A DNA stretch of 64,000 bases, taken from assembly GCA_030595325.1 (NCBI GenBank), contig JAUVDN010000002.1, forward strand, positions 705 to 64,704, written 5' to 3'. Below the pieces are notes generated by a model. That model searched no databases. It saw nothing but the letters and a program-made list of their open reading frames with translations, and was not told where the DNA came from. The stretch's first letter is position 1; every line of letters begins with the position of its first letter. This document shows positions 547-21,156 of the stretch, in pieces. The translations under genes and the position numbers were made by a program. This DNA comes from Gammaproteobacteria bacterium (GTDB taxonomy: Bacteria; Pseudomonadota; Gammaproteobacteria; SZUA-229).

Positions 547-1599
547 ATGAGACCAGTCCATCTTCTAACCGTAATAGAAAAAGAGTTTTTAAGTGCTTCT
601 GAACATAAGGGGTTAATATACCACACCCCTGTGATGTTGTGGGGTGCGCCAGGTGTTGGCAAATCGCAGATGGTGGCTCAGGTTGCCGAACGGCAAAACA
701 CACCACTGATTGATATCCGTTTGTCACAGATGGAGCCCAGTGACCTGCGCGGCATTCCATTTAAAGTAGGTGATACTGTCGAATGGGCAGTGCCTGCGAT
801 GTTACCTAATGCAGAGCGTCACGGTAACAACGGTATTTTATTTCTCGACGAAATTACGTCAGCTCCGCCCAGTGTGTCAGCTGCTGCGTATCAATTAATT
901 CTTGATAGAAAACTAGGTGAGTATGAAGTACCTGATGGCTGGGCGATTATTGCTGCAGGTAACAGGCAGGGTGATCGTGGTGTGACCTACAGCATGCCCG
1001 CACCGTTAGCGAACCGTTTCTCGCATTATGAAGTTGATATCAATCTGGATGACTGGGTTGCATGGGCTTATGCTAATGGCATCGACGAACGTGTTATTGC
1101 CTTTTTGCGTTTTCGTCAGGATCTATTGTTTGAGTTCGACGCATCGCAAAATCCAGTGGCGTTTCCTTCACCGCGTTCGTGGGAATTTGCACATCGTGCA
1201 TTACATAAATTTGAAGACTACCCTGAACTGTTTTCAGGTGCATTACAGGCCTGTGTAGGAAAAGCGGCCGGAATCGAACTGGCGGCATTTATCGCCAGTC
1301 TGGATCAGTTGCCGGATCTTGACGCTATCATCAAAGGCGAAGAAGTTGATACACCCAAAGAAATCGATTTACAGTATGCGGTAGCAACTGCGTTGGTTGG
1401 TCGTGCTATCCGTGCCAAAGATACGGATGATGCGATGAAGGTTCACGGAAATATTTTAACTTACGCCAACCGTTTCCCGCAGCGTGAAATGGGTGTGATG
1501 ATGGTTTCAGATATGCATCGTGCTATTGGACAGGATATTTTTTCAGTGCCGGAGTTTGCCAGTTGGGCTGACAAGATTGCTGACTTGATGCTTTATTAA
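547..1599 (+). CDS. MoxR-family AAA+ ATPase (AAA_5-like)
   Basis: Walker A GAPGVGKS and Walker B ILFLDEI are present. The size (350 aa) and single AAA+ module are typical of MoxR/RavA/CbbQ-type ATPases that pair with VWA proteins. Confidence 0.8.
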   Translation: MRPVHLLTVIEKEFLSASEHKGLIYHTPVMLWGAPGVGKSQMVAQVAERQNTPLIDIRLSQMEPSDLRGIPFKVGDTVEWAVPAMLPNAERHGNNGILFLDEITSAPPSVSAAAYQLILDRKLGEYEVPDGWAIIAAGNRQGDRGVTYSMPAPLANRFSHYEVDINLDDWVAWAYANGIDERVIAFLRFRQDLLFEFDASQNPVAFPSPRSWEFAHRALHKFEDYPELFSGALQACVGKAAGIELAAFIASLDQLPDLDAIIKGEEVDTPKEIDLQYAVATALVGRAIRAKDTDDAMKVHGNILTYANRFPQREMGVMMVSDMHRAIGQDIFSVPEFASWADKIADLMLY

Positions 1600-1704: not shown

Positions 1705-2964
1705 ATGTCTAGCTTCCCCGATGTTGAACAAAAACTTGCTGCAGCCAGAATACGTTTAATTCTGGACAAGCCTTTTCTAGGCGCGCTGGTTTTACGACTA
1801 CCGATGGTGGCCGGTGATTCCAAATGGTGTGAGTCAACCTTCAGTGACGGTAAAACATTTTATTACAATCACGATTACATCGATGCTCTTGATCAAGAGC
1901 AGACGCAATTTGCGCTTTCACATGAAGCGCTGCATTGTGCACTTTCACATTTTCATCGCCGTGGCCATCGGGTAAAACACCGTTGGGACCTGGCCTGCGA
2001 TTATGCGGTTAACCCTCTATTAATAAATGATGGCTTAAAGCCGACACCCGATGCCATGCACCTTCGCGAATATGAGGGTATGACGGCGGAAGAAATCTAC
2101 CCTTGTCTCGAAGATAATGATAATGATGGCGAACGGGATTTAGAAAGTAAAAAGCAATCTGATAATGCTGATAGTGATGATGAACAATCAAGTCAGGGCA
2201 ATGGCGGTGGTGGCAAGGAAAAGGAAAAACAAAACGACGAGCAGAGTGAAGGTCAGGGCGAACAGGATAAAGATCAGGATGATGCGGGTAAGGGTGGCTC
2301 AACGCCGCAACCAGCAGGATTGTCTCAGCAAGAAGAGGATGAGTTAAGTCTGCAATGGGAGCAACGTCTGGCAGGCGCTGCACAACAGGCATTACAGTCA
2401 GGTAAGTTAGAAGGTGAAATGGCTAGAATGGTTGATCATCTGCTGCAGCCAAAACTACCCTGGCGCATGTTGCTTGCACGTTATATGTCAGCCACCGCCA
2501 GGGAAGATTACAGTTATACAAGACCTTCATCACGCCGTGGAGATCCGGCGGTTTATCCGAGTATGCGTAGCAACGAGACTAATATCGTTGTTGCTGTTGA
2601 TACCAGCGGTTCGATAGACCAGGAAGAAATCGAAGAATTTATTTCAGAGATCGATGCAATAAAAAGTCAGGTGCGTGCCAGTGTTACGCTGCTTACTTGT
2701 GATTCAAAATTAAATTATGGTTGTCCCTGGTTTTTTGAGGCATGGGATCAGTTTCAGTTTGACGTGGAGATTCGTGGCGGTGGTGGCACAAACTTTAAAC
2801 CAGTTTTTGAGTGGGTCGAAAAGCAGGATAAAGCACCAGATTTACTGGTTTATTTTACTGATGCAGATGGTGTGTTTCCAGAAGTTGAACCAAATTTCCC
2901 TGTGACATGGTTGGTCAAGGGTAAATCAAAAGTGCCTTTCGGTGTAAGGGTTCAGTTAAATTAG
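1705..2964 (+). CDS. VWA-domain protein with N-terminal zincin-like metallopeptidase motif (DUF2201/COG3864-like partner of MoxR ATPases)
   Basis: There is an HExxH motif (SHEALHCALSH). A long acidic, Gly-rich low-complexity linker follows. The C-terminal domain carries a MIDAS-like DxSGS motif (VAVDTSGSI). The stop codon abuts the next gene start (2964/2965). Confidence 0.7.
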   Translation: MSSFPDVEQKLAAARIRLILDKPFLGALVLRLPMVAGDSKWCESTFSDGKTFYYNHDYIDALDQEQTQFALSHEALHCALSHFHRRGHRVKHRWDLACDYAVNPLLINDGLKPTPDAMHLREYEGMTAEEIYPCLEDNDNDGERDLESKKQSDNADSDDEQSSQGNGGGGKEKEKQNDEQSEGQGEQDKDQDDAGKGGSTPQPAGLSQQEEDELSLQWEQRLAGAAQQALQSGKLEGEMARMVDHLLQPKLPWRMLLARYMSATAREDYSYTRPSSRRGDPAVYPSMRSNETNIVVAVDTSGSIDQEEIEEFISEIDAIKSQVRASVTLLTCDSKLNYGCPWFFEAWDQFQFDVEIRGGGGTNFKPVFEWVEKQDKAPDLLVYFTDADGVFPEVEPNFPVTWLVKGKSKVPFGVRVQLN

Positions 2965-4089
2965 ATGGCACTTTCAGCAGAAGATAACTTACGTCTAAAC
3001 GTTTTGCTTGCGCAAGAGCTTTATGCTGTGCGTATCGATGAATCAAAGATGATTGTCTACGCATTAACCGCTAAAGGTGAGGCAAAGGTTCCTCTCAATG
3101 CGATAGGTAAAGACGATCCTTATTTAAAAGAGATTAAAGCATTATTTAGTACCCATGTAATGGGATCTCCTGGCGGTTATCCTGTCTATCTGAAGCGATG
3201 GACACGTATGGGGCAGGCGCGTGATGATAGTCTCGCGCAATTGTTATTGCTCGGCGAGCCTGAAGCAGTTGTGGCAGCAGTGCATGCACCAGGCTTAACT
3301 GATGAGATGGCAGCGCGAGCTTGGTGGGCAATGCCAACGTCAGAAAATGCAAGACGCATGTTGGAGAAACAAGCTGTCGTCGAAGGCGAGACGGGAAAAG
3401 TGCTAGCGGAATTCTTACTGGAGTTCTTACCGTTTGAAGAAGAGCAGAGTGATATGATTGATTCTGTTCGACTTGTGTTGCAGCCAGGGCTCATCAGTCA
3501 GCAAGAGAAAGATAAACTCTGGAAAAAAACAAAATCAAAGCGAAGTTTCTATGTTGGTTTTTTACATGCTGCAGCAGATGATCTACCGATTGATGTGGCT
3601 GCTCATGCTGATTATGAAACGGTTAAAGAGAAACTGCTTTCTTTAATCGAGAAAGAAAATCCATATGCAATAATGTTGGAAAAAGTATTAAGTGAAAATG
3701 GTCAGGCTTTTGTCCAAACAGTAGAAGATGCAATTAAGAAGCCGGGTAATCAGGATGTTGTGGTTTCGTTATTGTCCGCTGTAGCGAAATATTTTGAAAG
3801 TATTGTTCCAGATGTATTTACAGAGGATGACGTTGAAATTATCCGTACTGAAGCTAATGCGTTATGTTGTGGTGATAATGAATCTCTTAACGAAGTACTT
3901 GCCGTGCTTAATGATTCAAATGATAAAGTTCAGGATTATCTCTGCGCCATGACTGTATTGGCTTGTTTGAGTGTCAAACTGGTTAATCCTATCTTTGCTC
4001 GTACTGATGCTATTGGTACAGTGATGCGTAAAAAAATAAAACCGGTAACAGATCCTATACTAGAACAACTCCAAATACTGCGTAACTAA
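2965..4089 (+). CDS. Hypothetical protein (374 aa), third gene of the MoxR-VWA cassette
   Basis: The ORF starts immediately after the VWA gene stop with no gap. The protein is predicted alpha-helical and has no motif I recognise. Confidence 0.55.
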   Translation: MALSAEDNLRLNVLLAQELYAVRIDESKMIVYALTAKGEAKVPLNAIGKDDPYLKEIKALFSTHVMGSPGGYPVYLKRWTRMGQARDDSLAQLLLLGEPEAVVAAVHAPGLTDEMAARAWWAMPTSENARRMLEKQAVVEGETGKVLAEFLLEFLPFEEEQSDMIDSVRLVLQPGLISQQEKDKLWKKTKSKRSFYVGFLHAAADDLPIDVAAHADYETVKEKLLSLIEKENPYAIMLEKVLSENGQAFVQTVEDAIKKPGNQDVVVSLLSAVAKYFESIVPDVFTEDDVEIIRTEANALCCGDNESLNEVLAVLNDSNDKVQDYLCAMTVLACLSVKLVNPIFARTDAIGTVMRKKIKPVTDPILEQLQILRN

Positions 4090-4098
4090 AATTTAAGT

Positions 4099-4638
4099 AT
4101 GCGATTTGATAAAGTACTTATTATCATTGATGTGCAATTGAAGGCCGATCAATTACAGCAATATTTGCCCTGTTCAGTAAATATTATCGGTAGAACATTG
4201 GCTGCGATTGCTGATGAATACGAAAAAGAAAACAAAACCGGTTACTACCCTGCAATTGATTTCTTTAAGAAGCTGGATAGCGTTGATCCTGATTTAATTG
4301 CATCAGCAGAACAGGTGGCATGGCTGGTGGCAAAGTTGGCACGTGAAACCATCCAGTTAAAATTACGTCCTATCTTTTCATCTGTGCAAATTCAATCGAT
4401 TCAGACGCTTGCGTTTTCTTTGCCTAAGATCCGTCCAAACAAAGCAGATGCTATTGATCAGCTTGCAAAGCATTACACGCCAGACAGTGTGAAAATAGAA
4501 CTTGTGCTTACTATGATGCGTCGTGATTCAGAATCAGAAGACAATCGTGCTGTGTTGTACGCAAGAAAGATGATGTTTCGTTGGTTGGAGTCAGAATTTG
4601 AAATGATTGAGGTGACTAGCTCTAAGTCTTTGCAGTGA
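4099..4638 (+). CDS. Hypothetical protein (179 aa), fourth gene of the MoxR-VWA cassette
   Basis: There is a 9-bp gap after the previous gene on the same strand. No recognisable motif. Confidence 0.5.
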   Translation: MRFDKVLIIIDVQLKADQLQQYLPCSVNIIGRTLAAIADEYEKENKTGYYPAIDFFKKLDSVDPDLIASAEQVAWLVAKLARETIQLKLRPIFSSVQIQSIQTLAFSLPKIRPNKADAIDQLAKHYTPDSVKIELVLTMMRRDSESEDNRAVLYARKMMFRWLESEFEMIEVTSSKSLQ

Positions 4639-4991: not shown

Positions 4992-5018
4992 AGTATTCTG
5001 CTTTATATCACACATAAA

Positions 5019-5041
5019 CCCCTCTCCCTATGGGAGAGGGG
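5019..5041 (-). terminator. GC-rich perfect palindrome (CCCCTCTCCC-TAT-GGGAGAGGGG) between the dapD stop and the yffB start. Putative intrinsic terminator or attenuator hairpin.
   Basis: A 10-bp perfect inverted repeat with a 3-nt loop. It sits 21 nt downstream of dapD on the minus strand and is followed by TTTATGTGTG. Confidence 0.4.
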
Positions 5042-5061
5042 CGGGGTGAGGGTATGATTAT

Positions 5062-9302: not shown

Positions 9303-9389
9303 TGGTACCGGAGGCCGGACTTGAACCGGCACTCTATTGCTAGAACGGGATTTTGAATCCCGCGTGTCTACCAATTCCACCACTCCGGC
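9303..9389 (-). tRNA. tRNA-Leu (anticodon CAA)
   Basis: The reverse complement reads GCCGGAGTGGTGGAATTGGTAGACACGCGGGATTCAAAATCCCG...GGTTCAAGTCCGGCCTCCGGTACCA. This gives a cloverleaf with a long variable arm, anticodon loop TTCAAAA and a 3' CCA. Confidence 0.85.
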
Positions 9390-9771: not shown

Positions 9772-10448
9772 TATGCTTTATCTCCATTGTCATCCAAATC
9801 TTTAGTGTCGTCGTCTTTCCCTTTTAAGTCATCTTCAGAGATGTGGCGTGACAGATATAACGCCTGCAGGATAACAAAACCAATAGTGAGTCCCATCAAG
9901 CCGAATAGTTTGAAATTAACCCAGGTATCCATTCTGGCTTCTGGTGTTGCACCGACGTTGTAGTAAAAAGCAACATATAAGTTTGCCGCACCACTGATAA
10001 AAAAGAAGGTGACCCAGGAGAGGTTTAACGTTGACCAGACTTTTTCAGGTAGCTCAATGTGCTCCCCCATCATACGTTGAATAATGGGTCTTTCGCCAAC
10101 GTGCATACTGCCAAGAAAAACACCGGCAAATAACCAGTTCAGTACTGTCGGTTTCCATTGAATAAATGCAGGGTTGCCAAAAAAGATGGTGATACTGCCG
10201 AGTACGGTAATCAGTACCAATGAAAAAATATGCATACGTTCAAATTTGTGTGTTTTGAACCAATGCACGCCGACCTGAATAAAGCTGGCAAGGATGGCCA
10301 TACCGGTTGCAACGATAGTGGCGGCGATAAAATCTGGCTTTGCTGGGTCAATCAGTTGACCGATAAAAGTATTATCAATTAGAAAACTTGCCTGATAATA
10401 ACTAACAAAGAATAGAATAATTGGAAAAAAATCAAATAGTAACTTCAT
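9771..10448 (-). CDS. yciB: Intracellular septation protein A (YciB)
   Basis: [17 protein letters not shown]...[24 protein letters not shown]...VNFKLFG parallels E. coli YciB (MKQFLDFLPLVVFF...[25 protein letters not shown]...VNFKVFG). An extra internal insertion and an acidic tail are present. Confidence 0.8.
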
Positions 10449-10521
10449 TATCTTAATGTGTTTTATTGGCTTGGTGTTAGCCTTGCTGTTTATCGAAGGC
10501 TGGCATTATACCGAACTTCGT

Positions 10522-10658
10522 TAATGAATAATGAATAATGAGCAGTGAAGAATAGAAAGAATTTTTATCGCTGGTTTTACATAATTTGTTATTGGTAAAA
10601 TATCAGTAAGTGATATTTTTGTTTTTAATTGTTAATTATTCACTATTCATTTTTCATT
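10522..10658. repeat. Second copy of the AATGAATAATGAATA palindromic element (forward arm 10522..10554, inverted arm 10634..10658) in the yciB / yciO divergent promoter region
   Basis: The arms read aatgaataatgaataatgagcagtgaagaatag and aattattcactattcatttttcatt. Confidence 0.7.
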
Positions 10659-10686
10659 AATTTTTCACAACGTGTAAAATTCCCCC

Positions 10687-11304
10687 ATGAGTCAGTATTT
10701 TGAAATCCATCCGGAAAATCCACAAAAGCGTCTAATAAAACAAGCGGTAGATATTATTCATAAGGGTGGGGTGATTGTCTATCCAACGGATTCCAGCTAC
10801 GCACTGGGCTGTCATATCGGCGATAAAAACGCGGTTGAGCGGCTACGGCGGATTCGACAGATTGATGATAAACATAACTTAACGCTGGTCTGTCGTGATC
10901 TGTCTGAAATTGCGACCTATGCAAAAATTGAAAATACGGATTATCGTCTGCTCAAGTCATTAACACCGGGTCCATATACCTTCATCCTTCCTGCGACTAG
11001 CGAGGTTCCTCGTCGTTTGATGCACCCGAAGCGCAGACATATCGGGCTACGTGTTATGAATCATCCGGTGGTGAACGAGCTGCTTGATGAACTGGGTCAG
11101 CCGTTGATTAGCTGTACTCTGGTGATGCCGGGCGAGGAATTGCCGGTTACTGAGGCCGAAGATGTCCGTTCCATGCTGGAAAAGCATGTTGACCTGATTA
11201 TCGATGGTGGTCATTGCGGTATCGAACCAACCACGGTAATTCGATTGACCGATGGTATCCCTGATATCAGGCGTCATGGTAAGGGTAAAGACCATGGGCT
11301 TTAA
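10687..11304 (+). CDS. yciO: YrdC/Sua5-family L-threonylcarbamoyladenylate synthase paralog YciO
   Basis: [53 protein letters not shown] is near-identical in pattern to E. coli YciO ([42 protein letters not shown]...). Confidence 0.85.
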   Translation: [205 protein letters not shown]

Positions 11305-16521: not shown

Positions 16522-17568
16522 ATGAAAACAATTAATGTTTTAGTTTTTGTATTCCTCGTTTCACTGTGTAACCCGACTGTTGTAATTGCTAAGTCTGAGG
16601 GTGAGTTAAGTGCTGGCATGGTGAATCCAGGCCATGAAGAGCACCCGTCCTGGTTCAAGGTGTCCTTCCTCGATCTATTCGAAGATGTCGAGGATGCAGC
16701 AGATAATAATAAGCGTTTGATGATCTATTATTATCAGGATGGTTGCCCATACTGTAAAAAACTTCTGCAAGATAATTTTTCTCAGCGAAAGATATCTGAT
16801 AAAGCTAAAAAATATTTTGACGTGGTATCGATAAATCTTTGGGGTGATAAAGAAGTTACTGTTGGTGATAAAACTTATACTGAAAAAGAGTTTGCTGAAG
16901 CGCTAAAGGTTCAATATACCCCGACACTATTATTTTTTGATGAAAACAAAAAAATAATCTTCCGTGCAAATGGTTATTACCCGCCTGAAAAATTTAGTGC
17001 ATTACTAGATTATACCGGTAGCAAGAAAAATGCCGAGTCAAGTTATCAGGCGTATATGGCTAAGGTGAGTCCGCAGCCTTCAACAGGACGTCTTCATGAT
17101 GATATCAATAGTGTTTTATCAGTATCTGACCTGTCCAGTGCAGGGTCAGTAAATAAAAATAAGTATACACTGGTCATGTTTGAACAGAAAAAATGTAATA
17201 CCTGTGATGAGCTTCACCTTGATATCTTAAAGCGAAGAGAGAGTGTTGATTTGTTAGCAAGGTTTAATGTGGCGGTCGTTGACATGTGGTCTAATAAATC
17301 CGTTATCACACCATCGGGTGAAAAGTTAAAGCTACAGGAATGGGCTAAAAAACTAGATATTAAATATGCACCAAGTTTAGTGTTTTTTGATGATATGGGT
17401 ACTGAGGTGTTTCGAGCAGATGCCTATCTGAAAGCTTTTCACACGCAATCTGTTATGGATTATGTATCTACCGGTACATATAAAACACAGAGTAATTTTC
17501 AGCGTTATATTGATAAACGCGCCGATCATCTGCGTGAGCAGGGAATTGAAGTCAACCTGATGGAATAA
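16522..17568 (+). CDS. Secreted protein with two thioredoxin-like domains (CPYC and CNTC motifs)
   Basis: Signal peptide, YYQDGCPYCKKL (glutaredoxin-type CPYC) and a second FEQKKCNTCDELH CxxC motif. Confidence 0.5.
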   Translation: MKTINVLVFVFLVSLCNPTVVIAKSEGELSAGMVNPGHEEHPSWFKVSFLDLFEDVEDAADNNKRLMIYYYQDGCPYCKKLLQDNFSQRKISDKAKKYFDVVSINLWGDKEVTVGDKTYTEKEFAEALKVQYTPTLLFFDENKKIIFRANGYYPPEKFSALLDYTGSKKNAESSYQAYMAKVSPQPSTGRLHDDINSVLSVSDLSSAGSVNKNKYTLVMFEQKKCNTCDELHLDILKRRESVDLLARFNVAVVDMWSNKSVITPSGEKLKLQEWAKKLDIKYAPSLVFFDDMGTEVFRADAYLKAFHTQSVMDYVSTGTYKTQSNFQRYIDKRADHLREQGIEVNLME

Positions 17569-17624
17569 TTAATGAATCTACAGATGAACCAATTTTTGCA
17601 TCAATTTATGGGCTAAGACGAACG

Positions 17625-18377
17625 ATGAATGGCTCGCTTCAAACTATACCGTTATTAAATTTATCTATTGCTTTTATTCCTGCATTAATCGCTATTGGAA
17701 TACTTTTTAAGTGGTCGCTTAATTCCAAAAATGCGCTGTATGCTGTTTTAAGAATGCTGACTCAGCTGTTGCTTATCGGCTACTTTCTGGGTTATATCTT
17801 TGATTCTGACAGTGCTGGAGTTGTACTCATCGTACTGGCTGTAATGATATTTGTCTCCAGCTGGATAGCGTTAGGCGTGGTACCTAAACAAAGGTTTCGC
17901 TTGTATAAGTATTCCTTGATTGCTATTGCACTAGGTGGCGGATTTACCTTGTTACTGGTCACGCAAGGGGTGCTAGCACTGGACCCCTGGTATTCACCGC
18001 AGTCTTTTATTCCTATAGCAGGCATGATATTTGCTAATTCGATGAATAGCGTTAGTTTGGCTGCAGAACGGTTGCTTTCAGAGCTAAATCGGGGTGTTAG
18101 CTATGATGATGCTAGAAATATTGCATTGCAATCTTCACTCATACCGGTGATTAACTCGTTGTTTGCTGTGGGCCTTGTGTCGTTGCCGGGTATGATGACG
18201 GGGCAGATTTTATCGGGTATTTCACCTATGATAGCTGCGCGTTATCAGATTATGGTTATGTGTATGATCCTGGGCTCTGCAGGCATAGCAACCGCCTATT
18301 TCCTCGTTCTGATAAAACCCATGGTGGAGAAATCACAGCGAGCTGTTGAGGATAGTTTAATTGATGCTATCGACTAG
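17625..18377 (+). CDS. FetB/YbbM-family (UPF0014) ABC-type permease
   Basis: Polytopic membrane protein with LTQLLLIGYFLGYIF resembling FetB IQLIIVGYVLKYIF. No cognate ATPase gene is adjacent. Confidence 0.55.
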   Translation: MNGSLQTIPLLNLSIAFIPALIAIGILFKWSLNSKNALYAVLRMLTQLLLIGYFLGYIFDSDSAGVVLIVLAVMIFVSSWIALGVVPKQRFRLYKYSLIAIALGGGFTLLLVTQGVLALDPWYSPQSFIPIAGMIFANSMNSVSLAAERLLSELNRGVSYDDARNIALQSSLIPVINSLFAVGLVSLPGMMTGQILSGISPMIAARYQIMVMCMILGSAGIATAYFLVLIKPMVEKSQRAVEDSLIDAID

Positions 18378-19109
18378 GTTAGAATAATATAATGTCGCAC
18401 CATGTGACGCTTCATTGTTTATGGTTTTGTTCTCACTGCTGAGTAAAAACGCTGCTACTTTAGCTACTTCTTCAGGTGTGGTCAGGTTTTGAGGGTTTTC
18501 GGCCGGAAATGCGCGTGTTCTAAAACTGGTTCTAACACTGCCAGGAATTAAGCCGCATACGTTGATTGATGTATTTTCGACTTCATCAGCGAGTATCTCC
18601 ATGAAAGATTTTAATCCTGCTTTGGATACCCCGTAGGCGCCCCAGTAGGCGGTATTTTTATCATCCAGTGTAAATACGACTGAGCTTTGTGACTCGTGAT
18701 TAAGCAGCGGTAAGCAGGCCTTGGTCAGCATGAACTGAGCATTTAAATTGATCTGCATAACTCGATGCCATAGTTTTGAGTCATATTGTTGAACAGGAGA
18801 GGATGCACCTAACCAGCCTGCATTATTAAATAAACCGTCTAGTTTGCCAAATTCACTATGCAGTGCTTTAGTTAACGTATCACAGTCGTCAGGAGTTATT
18901 TTTTCGAAGTCCAGTGGGTAAATTAGCGGTTCGGAATAACCTGCCTGTACGATTTCATCATATAGTAGCTCCAGTTTAGGCTGTGTTTTACCATGCAGAA
19001 TCACGGTTGCACCGTTTTTCGCACATTCAATGGCAGTGGCTTTGCCGATGCCGTCACTGGCGCCGGTAATAAGTATGGTTTTATCTTTTAGTGTATAGGC
19101 TAATTGCAT
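18357..19109 (-). CDS. SDR-family oxidoreductase (YciK-like)
   Basis: A TGASDGIGKATA Rossmann motif with an N-terminus similar to E. coli YciK. Confidence 0.7.
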   Translation of the reverse strand: MQLAYTLKDKTILITGASDGIGKATAIECAKNGATVILHGKTQPKLELLYDEIVQAGYSEPLIYPLDFEKITPDDCDTLTKALHSEFGKLDGLFNNAGWLGASSPVQQYDSKLWHRVMQINLNAQFMLTKACLPLLNHESQSSVVFTLDDKNTAYWGAYGVSKAGLKSFMEILADEVENTSINVCGLIPGSVRTSFRTRAFPAENPQNLTTPEEVAKVAAFLLSSENKTINNEASHGATLYYSNLVDSIN

Positions 19110-19170
19110 AATCTGTTGATGTGCTTAAAATTGGTCGCTTATTTTACTTCGCTTACCAGCAAACGGCTAT

Positions 19171-21156
19171 ATGCAATATACAAATTTAATTTGGCGAGAC
19201 GGGCAGCCATATAGTGAACAATTTGATGATATTTACTATTCATCGAAGCAGGGTGAGCGTATCTCTGGTGAAAGTGAGTTTAATCACGTCTTTTTCAAAA
19301 ATAATGGATTGCCTGACCGATGGCACGAAGACAGGGATTTTGTTATCGCTGAATTGGGTTTCGGCAGCGCTCTAAACTGTTTGTTAACCATACGTGAGTG
19401 GTTAGCTCATCTGGAGGATATAAATTCTGCTGTGGATGCTGAGGGTAGAACTGGGTGCAGAAAAACACTTCATTATATAGCCATAGAAAAGTATCCTTTT
19501 TCAGCAGAAGATATTGCGCTGTTACATGCTGATCACGCTGAGCTAAAACCTTATTGTGATGAGCTGGTTTCTAATTATCCTTTAGCTATTGAGGCAAGTC
19601 ACAGTCGACGTTTATTTAATGGCCGTGTTGTTATCCATTATAAATTTATGGATGCTTATAATGCTCTGGCTAATGAATCTCTAAACGTGGACGCCTGGTA
19701 TTTGGATGGTTTTTCACCAGCGAATAACCCTGGTTTATGGTCGACTGAATTATTTGATGAATTACCTAAAAACAGCAGATTGAATGCGACATGCAGTACT
19801 TATACTTCAGCAGGTTTTGTGAAGCGGAATTTACAGGGTGCTGGCTTTGAGGTTAAGAAGGTTAAAGGCCATGGAAAAAAGCGCGATATGATTGTGGCTA
19901 CGCTGAAACATAAGTGCGAACATAAATTAACTTATGCTGACAAGCCATGGTTTTTTCAAAAGCTTGCTGATAAAAAGCATCCTAAAAGAGTAACGATTAT
20001 CGGCGGTGGTATAGCAGGTCTGAGTATTGCCTATTCTATGATTCAGCGTGGAATATCGGTTACGATTATCGATAGCAATGGCTCAGAAGTTAAAGAGACA
20101 TCATCAAATTTAGCGGCAATTGTTTATCCGCGCTTATCTTTAGATAATGACACTGACACAGAGTTTTATATGTCAGCTTTCTGTTATGCCACTTTTGTTA
20201 TAAAAAAATTACAGGGTAAAAATAAGAAAAGATTCTGGTTTGATGGCGGCTTGTTACAATCTATCAATAGAAAAAGAATCATTTCTATATTAAATAAGTT
20301 TGAATTCAACTGTAATTACATTTCAATAAATAAAGAACCATTATCTCAGAGCGTTAAGGATGAAGATAAAGTTTTTGTGGAATATAAAACGGCAGGGGTG
20401 GTACTGCCTGAGATGCTATGTGATGCGATAAAGAAAGAATGCGGTGAGTATTTGCAGTTTATAAAAGCTGGTATTACTCAGCTTGAACGTGATGGGGACG
20501 TATGGCGATGTTTAGAAGGCACGAAAGTAATTAATGAAGAAAAAATACTCATTATTGCAAATGGTGCAAAATTAAAATCTCTTGAATGTTCAGCAATGTT
20601 TCCTGTTGAATCTGTTCGTGGACAAATGCTGGAAGTGTCGGCGACACCTGTGTCACAGAAAATATCTAAAGTTATTAATAGCGGTATTTATGTGACACCA
20701 GTCATCAATCAGAAACACGTTATCGGTGGAACTTATTCGCGTGATAACAAGAATGAAAATGTAGAAGAGAGGGACAATTACACGCTGCTTGAATCAGCAA
20801 ACGATGTTTATCCTGGAGCATTTGAAATGGCTGATTACGTTCAGTCGTGGGTAGGGTTTCGTGCCATGGCAAAAGATAGAGTTCCTATAGTAGGTGCAAT
20901 GCCGGATATAGCATCTTTTAATAACGAATATGCTGATATTAATATTGGTGATATTAAAAAAAATTACCAGCCTGCAAAAAATCTAAAGGGTCTGCATGTA
21001 TCCATGGCGCATGGATCACGAGGTTTTACCAGTTGTTTTCTGGCGGCTGAAATAATATCTTCGCAGATAATAGGGGGTCCTTCACCGGTGCGTAAAAGGG
21101 TATTGGATTATTTAAACCCTTCAAGGTTTGTTGTGAATGATCTTAAGCGAAGGTGA
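19171..21156 (+). CDS. mnmC: Bifunctional tRNA mnm5s2U34 synthesis enzyme MnmC (methyltransferase plus FAD oxidoreductase)
   Basis: 661 aa. The MnmD N-terminal domain has DAWYLDGFSP. The C-terminal domain is a FAD oxidoreductase (IIGGGIAGLS). Confidence 0.85.
   Translation: MQYTNLIWRDGQPYSEQFDDIYYSSKQGERISGESEFNHVFFKNNGLPDRWHEDRDFVIAELGFGSALNCLLTIREWLAHLEDINSAVDAEGRTGCRKTLHYIAIEKYPFSAEDIALLHADHAELKPYCDELVSNYPLAIEASHSRRLFNGRVVIHYKFMDAYNALANESLNVDAWYLDGFSPANNPGLWSTELFDELPKNSRLNATCSTYTSAGFVKRNLQGAGFEVKKVKGHGKKRDMIVATLKHKCEHKLTYADKPWFFQKLADKKHPKRVTIIGGGIAGLSIAYSMIQRGISVTIIDSNGSEVKETSSNLAAIVYPRLSLDNDTDTEFYMSAFCYATFVIKKLQGKNKKRFWFDGGLLQSINRKRIISILNKFEFNCNYISINKEPLSQSVKDEDKVFVEYKTAGVVLPEMLCDAIKKECGEYLQFIKAGITQLERDGDVWRCLEGTKVINEEKILIIANGAKLKSLECSAMFPVESVRGQMLEVSATPVSQKISKVINSGIYVTPVINQKHVIGGTYSRDNKNENVEERDNYTLLESANDVYPGAFEMADYVQSWVGFRAMAKDRVPIVGAMPDIASFNNEYADINIGDIKKNYQPAKNLKGLHVSMAHGSRGFTSCFLAAEIISSQIIGGPSPVRKRVLDYLNPSRFVVNDLKRR

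Follow-up and report, generated by a model that had tools for sequence, protein, structure and literature searches.

A DsrS-family protein and its small partner encoded behind a MoxR-like ATPase and a VWA protein: a tentative link to maturation of the reverse dissimilatory sulfite reductase

The operon analyzed here consists of four genes on the + strand and lies, flanked by housekeeping genes, near the start of a 64-kb window (the whole stretch of DNA under analysis). Its first gene (547..1599, +) encodes a MoxR-like AAA+ ATPase of 350 aa (Pfam AAA_5, 4.3e-11), whose closest sequence relatives in the PDB are midasin AAA domains, NorQ, and CbbQ, and whose Walker A (GxPGVGKS), Walker B (LFLDE), and sensor region are kept across 47 orthologues. 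The second gene (1705..2964, +) encodes a protein of 419 aa that combines a DUF2201_N domain, a putative HExxH metallopeptidase (PF13203, 2.4e-43), with a VWA-like DUF2201 domain (PF09967, 4.2e-26). A low-complexity, acidic linker spans roughly residues 136-220, and there is a weak match to the minigluzincin MJ1213; both the HEALH....H motif of the protein and its MIDAS (DxSGS...T...D, as DTSGS...T...D) are conserved in 58 orthologues. The pair has the make-up of a MoxR/VWA chaperone, namely a MoxR-class AAA+ protein with intact Walker A and B and a partner with an intact MIDAS (DxSxS-T-D). Upstream, positions 1-546 of the window show no similarity to the conserved Sel1 gene that was looked for there, and scans for promoter and terminator consensus sequences returned sites that were no more frequent than in shuffled sequence.

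Behind this pair lie the two genes on which we focus, ORF3 (2965-4089, +; 374 aa, 41.5 kDa, pI 4.9) and ORF4 (4099-4638, +; 179 aa, predicted to adopt a ferredoxin-like alpha+beta fold). The TAG stop codon of the VWA gene (2962-2964) abuts the ATG of ORF3 at 2965 with a gap of 0 bp, and 9 nt separate the TAA stop of ORF3 (4087-4089) from the ATG of ORF4; such tight spacing (0 and 9 bp) suggests that translation of the genes is coupled. Both ORFs are under strong purifying selection (dN/dS against near relatives of 0.07 for ORF3 and 0.03 for ORF4), and their GC content, GC3, and codon usage lie inside the range of the window's housekeeping genes. Homologues are numerous, with more than 4500 homologous clusters for ORF3 and, for ORF4, 301 word-index matches as well as 162 representatives at 50% identity in a search of 1.84 billion proteins. 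An earlier note on this DNA, made from the letters alone, had held both ORFs to be real, co-transcribed genes. It was right that they are genuine and closely spaced and belong with the ATPase and VWA genes: the coordinates and gaps are correct, and both the homologues and the coding statistics bear the genes out.

The same note could match neither protein to any family, which for ORF3 no longer holds. On sequence grounds ORF3 belongs to the DsrS family, an assignment made through named relatives and through gene position at another locus; its link to the founding member, Alvin_1265, the DsrS of Allochromatium vinosum, is therefore indirect. A protein 80% identical to ORF3 (P0118) bears the UniRef name 'Sulfur reduction protein DsrS', and a profile built from 17 diverse ORF3 homologues gave 4122 matches, many of them named DsrS by NCBI, with the window protein scoring 4e-176; the homology to DsrS-annotated proteins is full-length. 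At the second locus, L071, dsrH-C-M-K-L-J-O-P-N-R occur in order (confirmed with Pfam and NCBIfam), and a full-length homologue of ORF3 (372 aa, 46% identity) follows 9 nt past the dsr run, next to dsrN (a sirohaem amidase homologue) and dsrR (IscA-like), at the end of the operon where dsrS is expected. This matches the arrangement in A. vinosum, where DsrS is encoded by the final gene of the sulfur-oxidation operon dsrABEFHCMKLJOPNRS. In work by Grimm et al. of 2010 and 2011, dsrS reportedly proved non-essential, its mutant oxidizing stored sulfur more slowly, with an effect said to lie at the post-transcriptional level; a phenotype of this kind would fit a role in maturation or stability. 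The function of DsrS has been termed 'not resolved' (PMC3368242), and GenBank uses the same name for the Thiocapsa counterpart of Alvin_1265 (PMC10892978).

The organisms that carry DsrS point to sulfur oxidation as well. The named genome matches are almost all sulfur oxidizers (Thiohalophilus, Thioalkalispiraceae, Beggiatoaceae, Thiomargarita, Thioploca, and Ectothiorhodospiraceae), and further hosts are Woeseiaceae, Arenicellales, and one short contig binned as Planctomycetota. By tblastn, the 64-kb window itself holds no dsr genes; a close relative, represented by a 2.5-Mb contig, has RuBisCO and is an autotroph. ORF3 had no match in the phages and plasmids searched, and a mobile-element origin of DsrS was rejected on this basis.

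Scans of ORF3 and ORF4 against Pfam, NCBIfam, and PADLOC returned nothing above noise, and PDB sequence searches revealed no recognizable motif either, so that the earlier description of both proteins as lacking recognizable motifs stands for these searches and fails only for the naming of ORF3. The richness in helices expected of ORF3 was borne out by AlphaFold2 (AF2) modeling, which predicts about 20 helices (pLDDT 88.8) arranged in what appears to be an alpha-solenoid without a PDB relative and without an enzyme fold. Across the family, one flexible, disordered loop (GSPGGYPxYLxRWTRMGQ) is invariant, as are an acidic patch (LPFEEE) and the acidic residues E6, D7, D25, E26, E158, and E159. 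A Cys-rich C-terminal stretch (CCGDNES...CAMTVLAC) is indeed present in ORF3, as had been pointed out; conservation is lowest in the segment that contains it (residues 281-340; the residue of the window protein recurs there in 22-38% of homologues), and none of its cysteines (301, 302, 327, and 334) is invariant, Cys301 being common. We therefore rejected it as a functional motif. Neither the DsrS nor the ORF4 family has a conserved Cys or metal-binding motif, so that the two proteins do not themselves carry the cofactor discussed below.

ORF4 represents a small unnamed family that, in the loci examined, occurs only directly downstream of DsrS, and we regard it as a lineage-restricted DsrS partner. 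A Pfam scan of 73 diverse family members gave no match. The predicted structure has an alpha+beta fold with a four-stranded sheet, probably a generic ferredoxin-like fold, and fold searches returned weak ACT-like matches. One homologue (P0172) bears the JGI label 'Post-segregation antitoxin (ccd killing protein)'. We rejected a CcdA-type antitoxin identity given the alpha+beta fold, the constant DsrS neighbor, and the lack of a Pfam match among the 73 members scanned, a set to which P0172 itself does not belong.

The order AAA-VWA-DsrS(-ORF4) recurs across sulfur-oxidizing Gammaproteobacteria. Among genome loci with room for the gene, 57 out of 69 have VWA immediately before DsrS and 46 out of 58 have AAA upstream, which confirms that these ORFs are tied, as expected, to the neighboring ATPase and VWA genes. 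A second, independent set of 40 metagenome loci was seeded on AAA; VWA was the next gene in all of them, and DsrS followed in 29. The 0-bp junction between VWA and DsrS is kept across several families, across which the ATPase remains 70-94% identical and DsrS about 50%. Published genomes describe dsrS as 'located elsewhere' from the dsr cluster (PMC5024460, PMC5328954), and we find that, apart from the Chromatiaceae-type arrangement, most sulfur-oxidizing Gammaproteobacteria no longer carry dsrS in the dsr operon but as the third gene of a vertically inherited AAA-VWA-DsrS operon. The association has exceptions on both sides: DsrS lacks an adjacent AAA-VWA pair at L071 and at about 11 loci of Beggiatoaceae type, and 11 of the 40 metagenome loci carry the AAA-VWA pair without DsrS within 6 kb, lying there between htpG, hslR, a nudix gene, and adk/trx. 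Neither partner is thus obligatorily adjacent to the other. In other lineages, the sirohaem synthase gene cysG (NF007922, 8e-190) directly follows DsrS or ORF4 in 11 loci, in at least two arrangements; together with dsrN and dsrR in L071, this is the neighborhood from which a link to sirohaem and Dsr is drawn.

From this gene neighborhood and from analogy we tentatively propose, at somewhat less than an even chance, that the reverse-Dsr machinery is served by a MoxR/VWA maturation module of which DsrS and ORF4 are client-specific accessory subunits. In the general model for MoxR/VWA systems, the MIDAS binds an acidic patch of the client, which is remodeled by ATP hydrolysis so that the cofactor can be inserted (PMC9976466). 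Here, the ATPase hexamer and the VWA protein would form an ATP-driven remodeling motor of the NorQD/CbbQO type, and DsrS, as an acidic all-helical solenoid, may be the client-specific scaffold or adaptor that couples this motor to the reverse-Dsr machinery, with ORF4 as an accessory subunit. The most plausible client would be rDsrAB with its sirohaem-amide/[4Fe-4S] cofactor. A more specific version is possible, if doubtful: that AAA-VWA(DUF2201)-DsrS-ORF4 is a previously undescribed, dedicated ATP-driven machine for the maturation or repair of the reverse dissimilatory sulfite reductase, which would insert or exchange the sirohaem-amide/[4Fe-4S] cofactor, with DsrS as client adaptor and ORF4 as lineage-specific accessory. 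The physical partnership of the four proteins, the client, and the direction of action are all conjectural in both versions. Several findings weigh against the proposal: DsrS genes with no motor pair beside them, motor pairs with no DsrS nearby, a window devoid of dsr genes, the distant ATPase-DUF2201 pairs of jumbo phages and conjugative plasmids, and the lack of a conserved Cys or metal-binding motif in DsrS and ORF4.

A post-transcriptional effect of DsrS was reportedly proposed in the work on A. vinosum, and this counts for a different reading, in which DsrS would be an autonomous post-transcriptional regulator of dsr expression, its position behind AAA-VWA would reflect co-regulation or inherited synteny with no physical cooperation, and ORF4 would be a co-regulator or a ligand-sensing (ACT-like) subunit. 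That dsrS has its own promoter (PMC3368242), that DsrS stands alone in the Beggiatoaceae loci, and that ORF4 gives weak ACT-like fold matches all agree with such a role. We nevertheless consider it unlikely, since the VWA linkage at 0 bp is kept while the sequences diverge to about 50% identity, which is unusual for genes of unrelated function. An RNA-binding regulator in particular is disfavored by the acidic nature of the protein (pI 4.9; family median 5.5) and by sequence and structure comparisons, which revealed no nucleic-acid-binding fold or motif in DsrS.

The invariant acidic residues and the invariant disordered loop of DsrS raise another question, namely whether DsrS, together with ORF4, is itself what the motor acts on. 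The MIDAS of the VWA protein would then bind the acidic patch of DsrS, and remodeling or cleavage of DsrS, by the AAA motor or the HExxH domain, would serve as a regulatory switch for sulfur oxidation. In keeping with this idea, clients of NorQD and CbbQO are encoded beside their motors (PMC9976466), and orthologues of the VWA protein retain its HExxH motif. It is made improbable by the existence of AAA-VWA pairs without an adjacent DsrS; moreover, DsrS shows no cleavage site or sign of processing, and Pfam calls the peptidase activity of DUF2201_N only 'putative'.

The DsrS-less AAA-VWA pairs among htpG, hslR, a nudix gene, and adk/trx could also be taken to mean that the four genes have nothing to do with Dsr and make up a general module for proteostasis or stress, the DsrS name being an accident of Chromatiaceae gene order. 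The housekeeping genes on both sides of the window operon and the wide spread of the motor family in unrelated bacteria, plasmids, and phages would suit such a module. Distant ATPase-DUF2201 pairs in jumbo phages and conjugative plasmids indicate that the motor has no intrinsic link to sulfur metabolism. Against this, DsrS homologues come almost only from sulfur-oxidizing Gammaproteobacteria, the dsr-operon position recurs in the independent lineage L071, and the linkage to cysG is present, so that we think a general stress module hardly likely.

The earlier note had placed ORF3 and ORF4 as possible effector and sensor of a MoxR-VWA biological-conflict (anti-phage) system, a reading that is now largely refuted and highly improbable: MoxR-vWA ternary conflict systems do exist (PMC7159879), distantly related DUF2201-ATPase pairs are found in phages and conjugative plasmids, and the ATPase has weak partial P-loop matches to PADLOC models (best 9.4e-06), but bpMoxR (PF20030) reaches only 18.2 bits on the ATPase against a cut-off of 27, and in the P-loop region only; ORF3, ORF4, and the VWA protein have no significant PADLOC match; predicted-structure comparisons found no toxin, nuclease, or effector fold; the genes evolve slowly (dN/dS 0.03-0.07; ATPase 70-94% identical across families) in a conserved chromosomal housekeeping context with native codon usage; and DsrS, absent from the phages and plasmids searched, is a named protein of a metabolic operon. 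Homology to a housekeeping family had been named beforehand as what would speak against a conflict role, and the kinship with the metabolic-operon protein DsrS, whose role is putative, essentially provides it. The locus has no mobile or defense context, and the DsrS identity together with a conserved operon that includes a chaperone-type ATPase makes a role in cofactor maturation far likelier than one in defense.

Both the named family DsrS and operons that combine MoxR, VWA, and client-specific genes are already known, and the window operon is no new kind of system. The gene dsrS has counted among the dsr genes ever since the sequencing of the A. vinosum operon. Genome papers note only that it lies 'elsewhere', and elsewhere usually means behind a highly conserved MoxR-like ATPase and a VWA/HExxH protein with a MIDAS; a dedicated partner of 179 aa is often present too, and cysG sometimes. 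In the literature searched, we found no mention of dsrS together with MoxR, VWA, AAA+, or DUF2201. The proposed maturation role gives the orphan dsrS a testable hypothesis, ATP-driven maturation of the sulfur-oxidizing sulfite reductase, and gives the ATPase-DUF2201 pair of plasmids and jumbo phages its first physiological handle. If the dedicated-machine version were true, it would provide the first biochemical function for DsrS and the first client for this widespread pair.

Compared with known systems, the closest counterpart of ORF3 is the A. vinosum DsrS (Alvin_1265), a protein of about 41 kDa that matches the 41.5 kDa of ORF3, is soluble and cytoplasmic as ORF3 is, and whose name the relatives of ORF3 share in their source records; unlike it, the window gene lies outside a dsr operon, as third gene of an AAA-VWA operon and with ORF4 behind it. 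The MoxR-vWA-beta-propeller ternary conflict systems (Kaur et al. 2020, PMC7159879) likewise combine a MoxR-like ATPase, a vWA protein, and extra genes in one operon, whereas the window operon is highly conserved and vertically inherited, and has no bpMoxR at threshold, beta-propeller, effector domain, or defense island. The pairs of jumbo phages and conjugative plasmids share the DUF2201_N plus DUF2201 architecture and the adjacent ATPase, but they show an identity of only 25-33%, stand in a mobile-element context, and come without DsrS or ORF4. NorQ/NorD and CbbQ/CbbO resemble the window operon in that an AAA_5/MoxR-type ATPase is encoded beside a MIDAS-bearing VWA protein. The window ATPase is longer than NorQ and CbbQ (350 aa versus about 270), its VWA partner, at 419 aa, is much shorter than NorD and CbbO and of the DUF2201 type with an HExxH N-domain, and the operon adds two dedicated proteins to the NorQD/CbbQO scheme, DsrS and ORF4.

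We identify ORF3 (2965-4089, + strand, 374 aa) as almost certainly DsrS, an assignment drawn from its named relatives and from gene position in a related locus. Searches of domain libraries and PDB sequences with ORF3 gave no match. A protein relative that is 80% identical to it (P0118) bears the UniRef name 'Sulfur reduction protein DsrS', and a profile built from 17 diverse homologues (alignment A1) retrieved 4122 proteins, many with 'sulfur reduction protein DsrS' as their NCBI name, and matched ORF3 at 4e-176. At one related locus, L071, a full-length homologue (46% identical) directly follows genes assigned by Pfam and NCBIfam to dsrH, dsrC, dsrM, dsrK, dsrL, dsrJ, dsrO, dsrP, dsrN, and dsrR, exactly where dsrS sits in dsrABEFHCMKLJOPNRS, the A. 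vinosum operon. The earlier note could not match ORF3 to a family from sequence; the named relatives, the profile match, and the L071 slot add it to one that already has a name, and it does not count as unclassifiable. The Thiocapsa counterpart of Alvin_1265 carries the same DsrS name in GenBank (PMC10892978). Scanning species-representative genomes yielded 78 loci, and those named below class belong nearly all to sulfur-oxidising Gammaproteobacteria, namely Thiohalophilus, Thioalkalispiraceae, Parabeggiatoa, Albibeggiatoa, Thiomargarita, Thioploca, and Ectothiorhodospiraceae. The scan also gave Woeseiaceae, Arenicellales, and a single short contig binned as Planctomycetota. The function of DsrS has been described as 'still not resolved' and dsrS as having its own promoter (PMC3368242), and in Sulfurifustis, Sulfuricaulis, and Thioalkalivibrio the gene is encoded away from the dsr cluster (PMC5024460, PMC5328954).

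In the window, dsrS is the third of four genes that run in one direction on the + strand. Gene 1 (547-1599, 350 aa) encodes an AAA_5/MoxR-like ATPase (Pfam AAA_5, 4.3e-11) that is closest, among solved proteins, to the AAA modules of midasin and to NorQ and CbbQ. Gene 2 (1705-2964, 419 aa) encodes a VWA protein combining DUF2201_N (putative metallopeptidase, 2.4e-43) with DUF2201 (VWA-like, 4.2e-26). Across ~50 orthologues, the ATPase keeps its Walker A, Walker B, and sensor region, and the VWA protein keeps its HEALH....H motif and a complete MIDAS motif (DTSGS...T...D); the long, acidic, Gly/Gln/Lys-rich low-complexity linker between its HExxH and VWA domains (residues ~136-220, window 2110-2360) is not conserved. 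The ATG of ORF3 directly follows the gene 2 stop codon TAG (2962-2964), and 9 nt separate the ORF3 stop from the ATG of ORF4 (4099-4638, + strand, 179 aa); this abutment, the gap, and the ORF calls agree with the coordinates, lengths, and spacings first given for both ORFs. Their reading as real genes also holds: ORF3 has >4500 homologous clusters, ORF4 has 301 word-index matches and, in a set of 1.84 billion proteins, 162 clusters at 50% identity (members ~180 aa), dN/dS against near relatives is ~0.07 for ORF3 and ~0.03 for ORF4, selection is strongly purifying, and GC, GC3, and codon usage fall inside the range of the window's housekeeping genes and are native. Iterated HMM searches placed ORF4 at 34 genome loci, each time immediately 3' of DsrS in the same orientation, with no occurrence elsewhere. 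Of the 29 metagenome loci having DsrS, 20 contain ORF4. It belongs to a genuinely unnamed small family with the conserved motifs LGYYPALDYF, LRPxFS, MPxVRP, HYxP, and RWLxxxF, no conserved Cys, and no recognisable extra domain; a Pfam scan of 73 members gave no match.

On the 3' side of the operon, the opposite strand encodes an ArsC-family protein, DapD, and an aminotransferase, with a strong terminator-like hairpin (5018-5042, - strand; 11 pairs, 8 G-C) between dapD and the ArsC-family gene, and the rest of the window holds core housekeeping genes (trpS, smc, zipA, ligA, pdxJ, rne, glyA, nrdR, ribD). The sole Rfam match in the window is a tRNA gene (9306-9389, - strand). The 5' stretch before the ATPase gene (1-546) has low GC (0.37) and resembles the equivalent stretch at none of the related loci; a 162-aa ORF within it (13-501) appears spurious. 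Related loci carry a conserved set 5' of the ATPase gene, consisting of a DUF6866 protein (~345 aa, opposite strand), an unannotated ~183-aa protein, and a Sel1-repeat protein (L002:4349-7360, L078:4139-5957, L159:4263-6978; outside the window, which begins 546 nt before the ATPase gene), which may be part of the operon's functional neighbourhood. Two related genomes have a small PDDEXK_3-family gene between the ATPase and VWA genes (L013:8129-8503, L159:8106-8489). The near relative L159, on a 2.5-Mb contig, also has, 6-9 kb 3' of the operon (17181-20197), genes for both the large and the small subunit of form I RuBisCO, for an AAA activase of the CbbX type, and for a LysR regulator, indicating a chemolithoautotroph.

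The four genes very probably form one conserved functional unit. Among genome loci with room, the VWA gene lies directly 5' of dsrS in 57 of 69 and the ATPase gene 5' of it in 46 of 58; the ATPase shows striking conservation, with a median identity to the window copy of 75% (minimum 69%), against a median of 54% for DsrS. The 12 loci lacking an adjacent VWA gene are L071, within its dsr operon, and 11 where DsrS stands alone, mostly in Beggiatoaceae (Parabeggiatoa, Albibeggiatoa, Thiomargarita, Thioploca). One Parabeggiatoa MAG (L020:957-3915 and 10001-11128) keeps the VWA gene 6 kb 5' of DsrS, parted from it by inserted opposite-strand genes; no ATPase gene is recognisable in the 1.7 kb lying 5' of the VWA gene. 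An independent sample came from metagenome contigs, with the ATPase as seed: VWA followed the ATPase in 40/40 loci with room, and DsrS came next in 29/40. The other 11 pairs, without DsrS within 6 kb (L109, L119, L122, L134, L136, L139, L148-L151, L153), are orthologous (~75% identity for the ATPase, ~54% for VWA) and sit mostly on high-GC contigs in the order htpG, DsbA-like, hslR, nudix, ATPase, VWA, adk, GGDEF, trx. Downstream, cysG follows DsrS by ~100-260 bp on the same strand in seven genome loci without ORF4; in metagenome loci it follows DsrS once and ORF4 three times. Across these loci, cysG lies directly 3' of DsrS or ORF4 in at least two distinct operon arrangements (L047:11218-12618, which matches NF007922, the model for sirohaem synthase CysG, at 8e-190; equivalents in L039, L043, L051, L053, L054, L059, L104, L125, L129, and L137). 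At L071 the neighbours of DsrS are dsrN, a sirohaem amidase homologue, and the IscA-like dsrR. The non-motor neighbours of DsrS, cysG included, point towards DsrAB's sirohaem/Fe-S cofactor.

An AF2 model of DsrS from a 117-sequence alignment was confident (pLDDT 88.8, pTM 0.85); a small three-stranded sheet at the N-terminus precedes ~20 helices. Foldseek, which the earlier note had suggested alongside HHpred and AlphaFold, returned no match below E = 0.06, so the modelled protein is described as an alpha-solenoid without a solved relative, and its predicted fold is scaffold-like, not enzyme-like. Residues 67-84, GSPGGYPVYLKRWTRMGQ, are at once the best conserved segment and the one with the lowest model confidence, as is typical of loops that become ordered on partner binding. 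DsrS is acidic (pI 4.9), and E158/E159 of LPFEEE are among its invariant acidic positions. The Cys-rich C-terminal stretch pointed out earlier is present, but it falls in the part of the protein with the least conservation, and none of its four cysteines is invariant.

In the MoxR/VWA systems studied to date, of which NorQD is the example described (PMC9976466), an AAA+ hexamer holds a VWA domain whose MIDAS ion docks onto an acidic patch of the client; the client is then remodelled through ATP hydrolysis, which allows a cofactor to be inserted or an inhibitor to be released. By analogy with these systems, and given the gene neighbours of DsrS, we propose tentatively that DsrS is a maturation adaptor, which we regard as possible rather than probable. 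The ATPase and the VWA/HExxH protein would form the motor, DsrS would be the client-specific scaffold connecting it with the machinery of reverse Dsr, most plausibly with rDsrAB as client, and ORF4 would be a lineage-restricted accessory subunit. Such a mechanism would account for the phenotype of the A. vinosum dsrS mutant, reportedly non-essential with slower oxidation of stored sulfur and an effect after transcription (Grimm et al. 2010 and 2011). Rival readings are that DsrS is an autonomous regulator, that it is itself the client or substrate, or that the operon is a general proteostasis module. The weakest rival, the MoxR-VWA conflict system of the earlier note with ORF3 and ORF4 as possible effector or sensor, is opposed by a below-threshold bpMoxR match of the ATPase, no significant PADLOC match for ORF3, ORF4, or the VWA protein, the lack of a toxin-like fold among the proteins, the selection and codon usage, the conserved housekeeping context on the chromosome (including the near relative's RuBisCO and CbbX), and zero DsrS matches in 50,697 phage and 72,556 plasmid records. 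A wider ATPase-DUF2201 pair (25-33% identity) does occur in jumbo phages and conjugative plasmids, with DUF2201 protein matches in 544 phage and 126 plasmid records in total, which makes the idea understandable for the superfamily yet unfit for the window's orthologue group. Distant DUF2201 proteins lie close to an ATPase gene in the jumbo phage Ecwhy_1 of Escherichia (L162) and, beside type IV secretion genes, on the conjugative Paraburkholderia plasmid pPHS1_P (L161). One MAG has a QatA-like anti-phage ATPase (NF041923, 3.5e-28) just 3' of DsrS (L060:9889-12519), an isolated defence gene outside the operon.

In the literature searched, we found no paper combining dsrS with MoxR, VWA, AAA+, or DUF2201, and no functional account among the few mentions of DUF2201; the coupling of DsrS to MoxR/VWA appears not to have been described previously. 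The operon offers a concrete, testable lead on a long-unresolved sulfur-oxidation gene. Its type, MoxR plus VWA with specific partners, is of a known kind and does not constitute a new kind of system.
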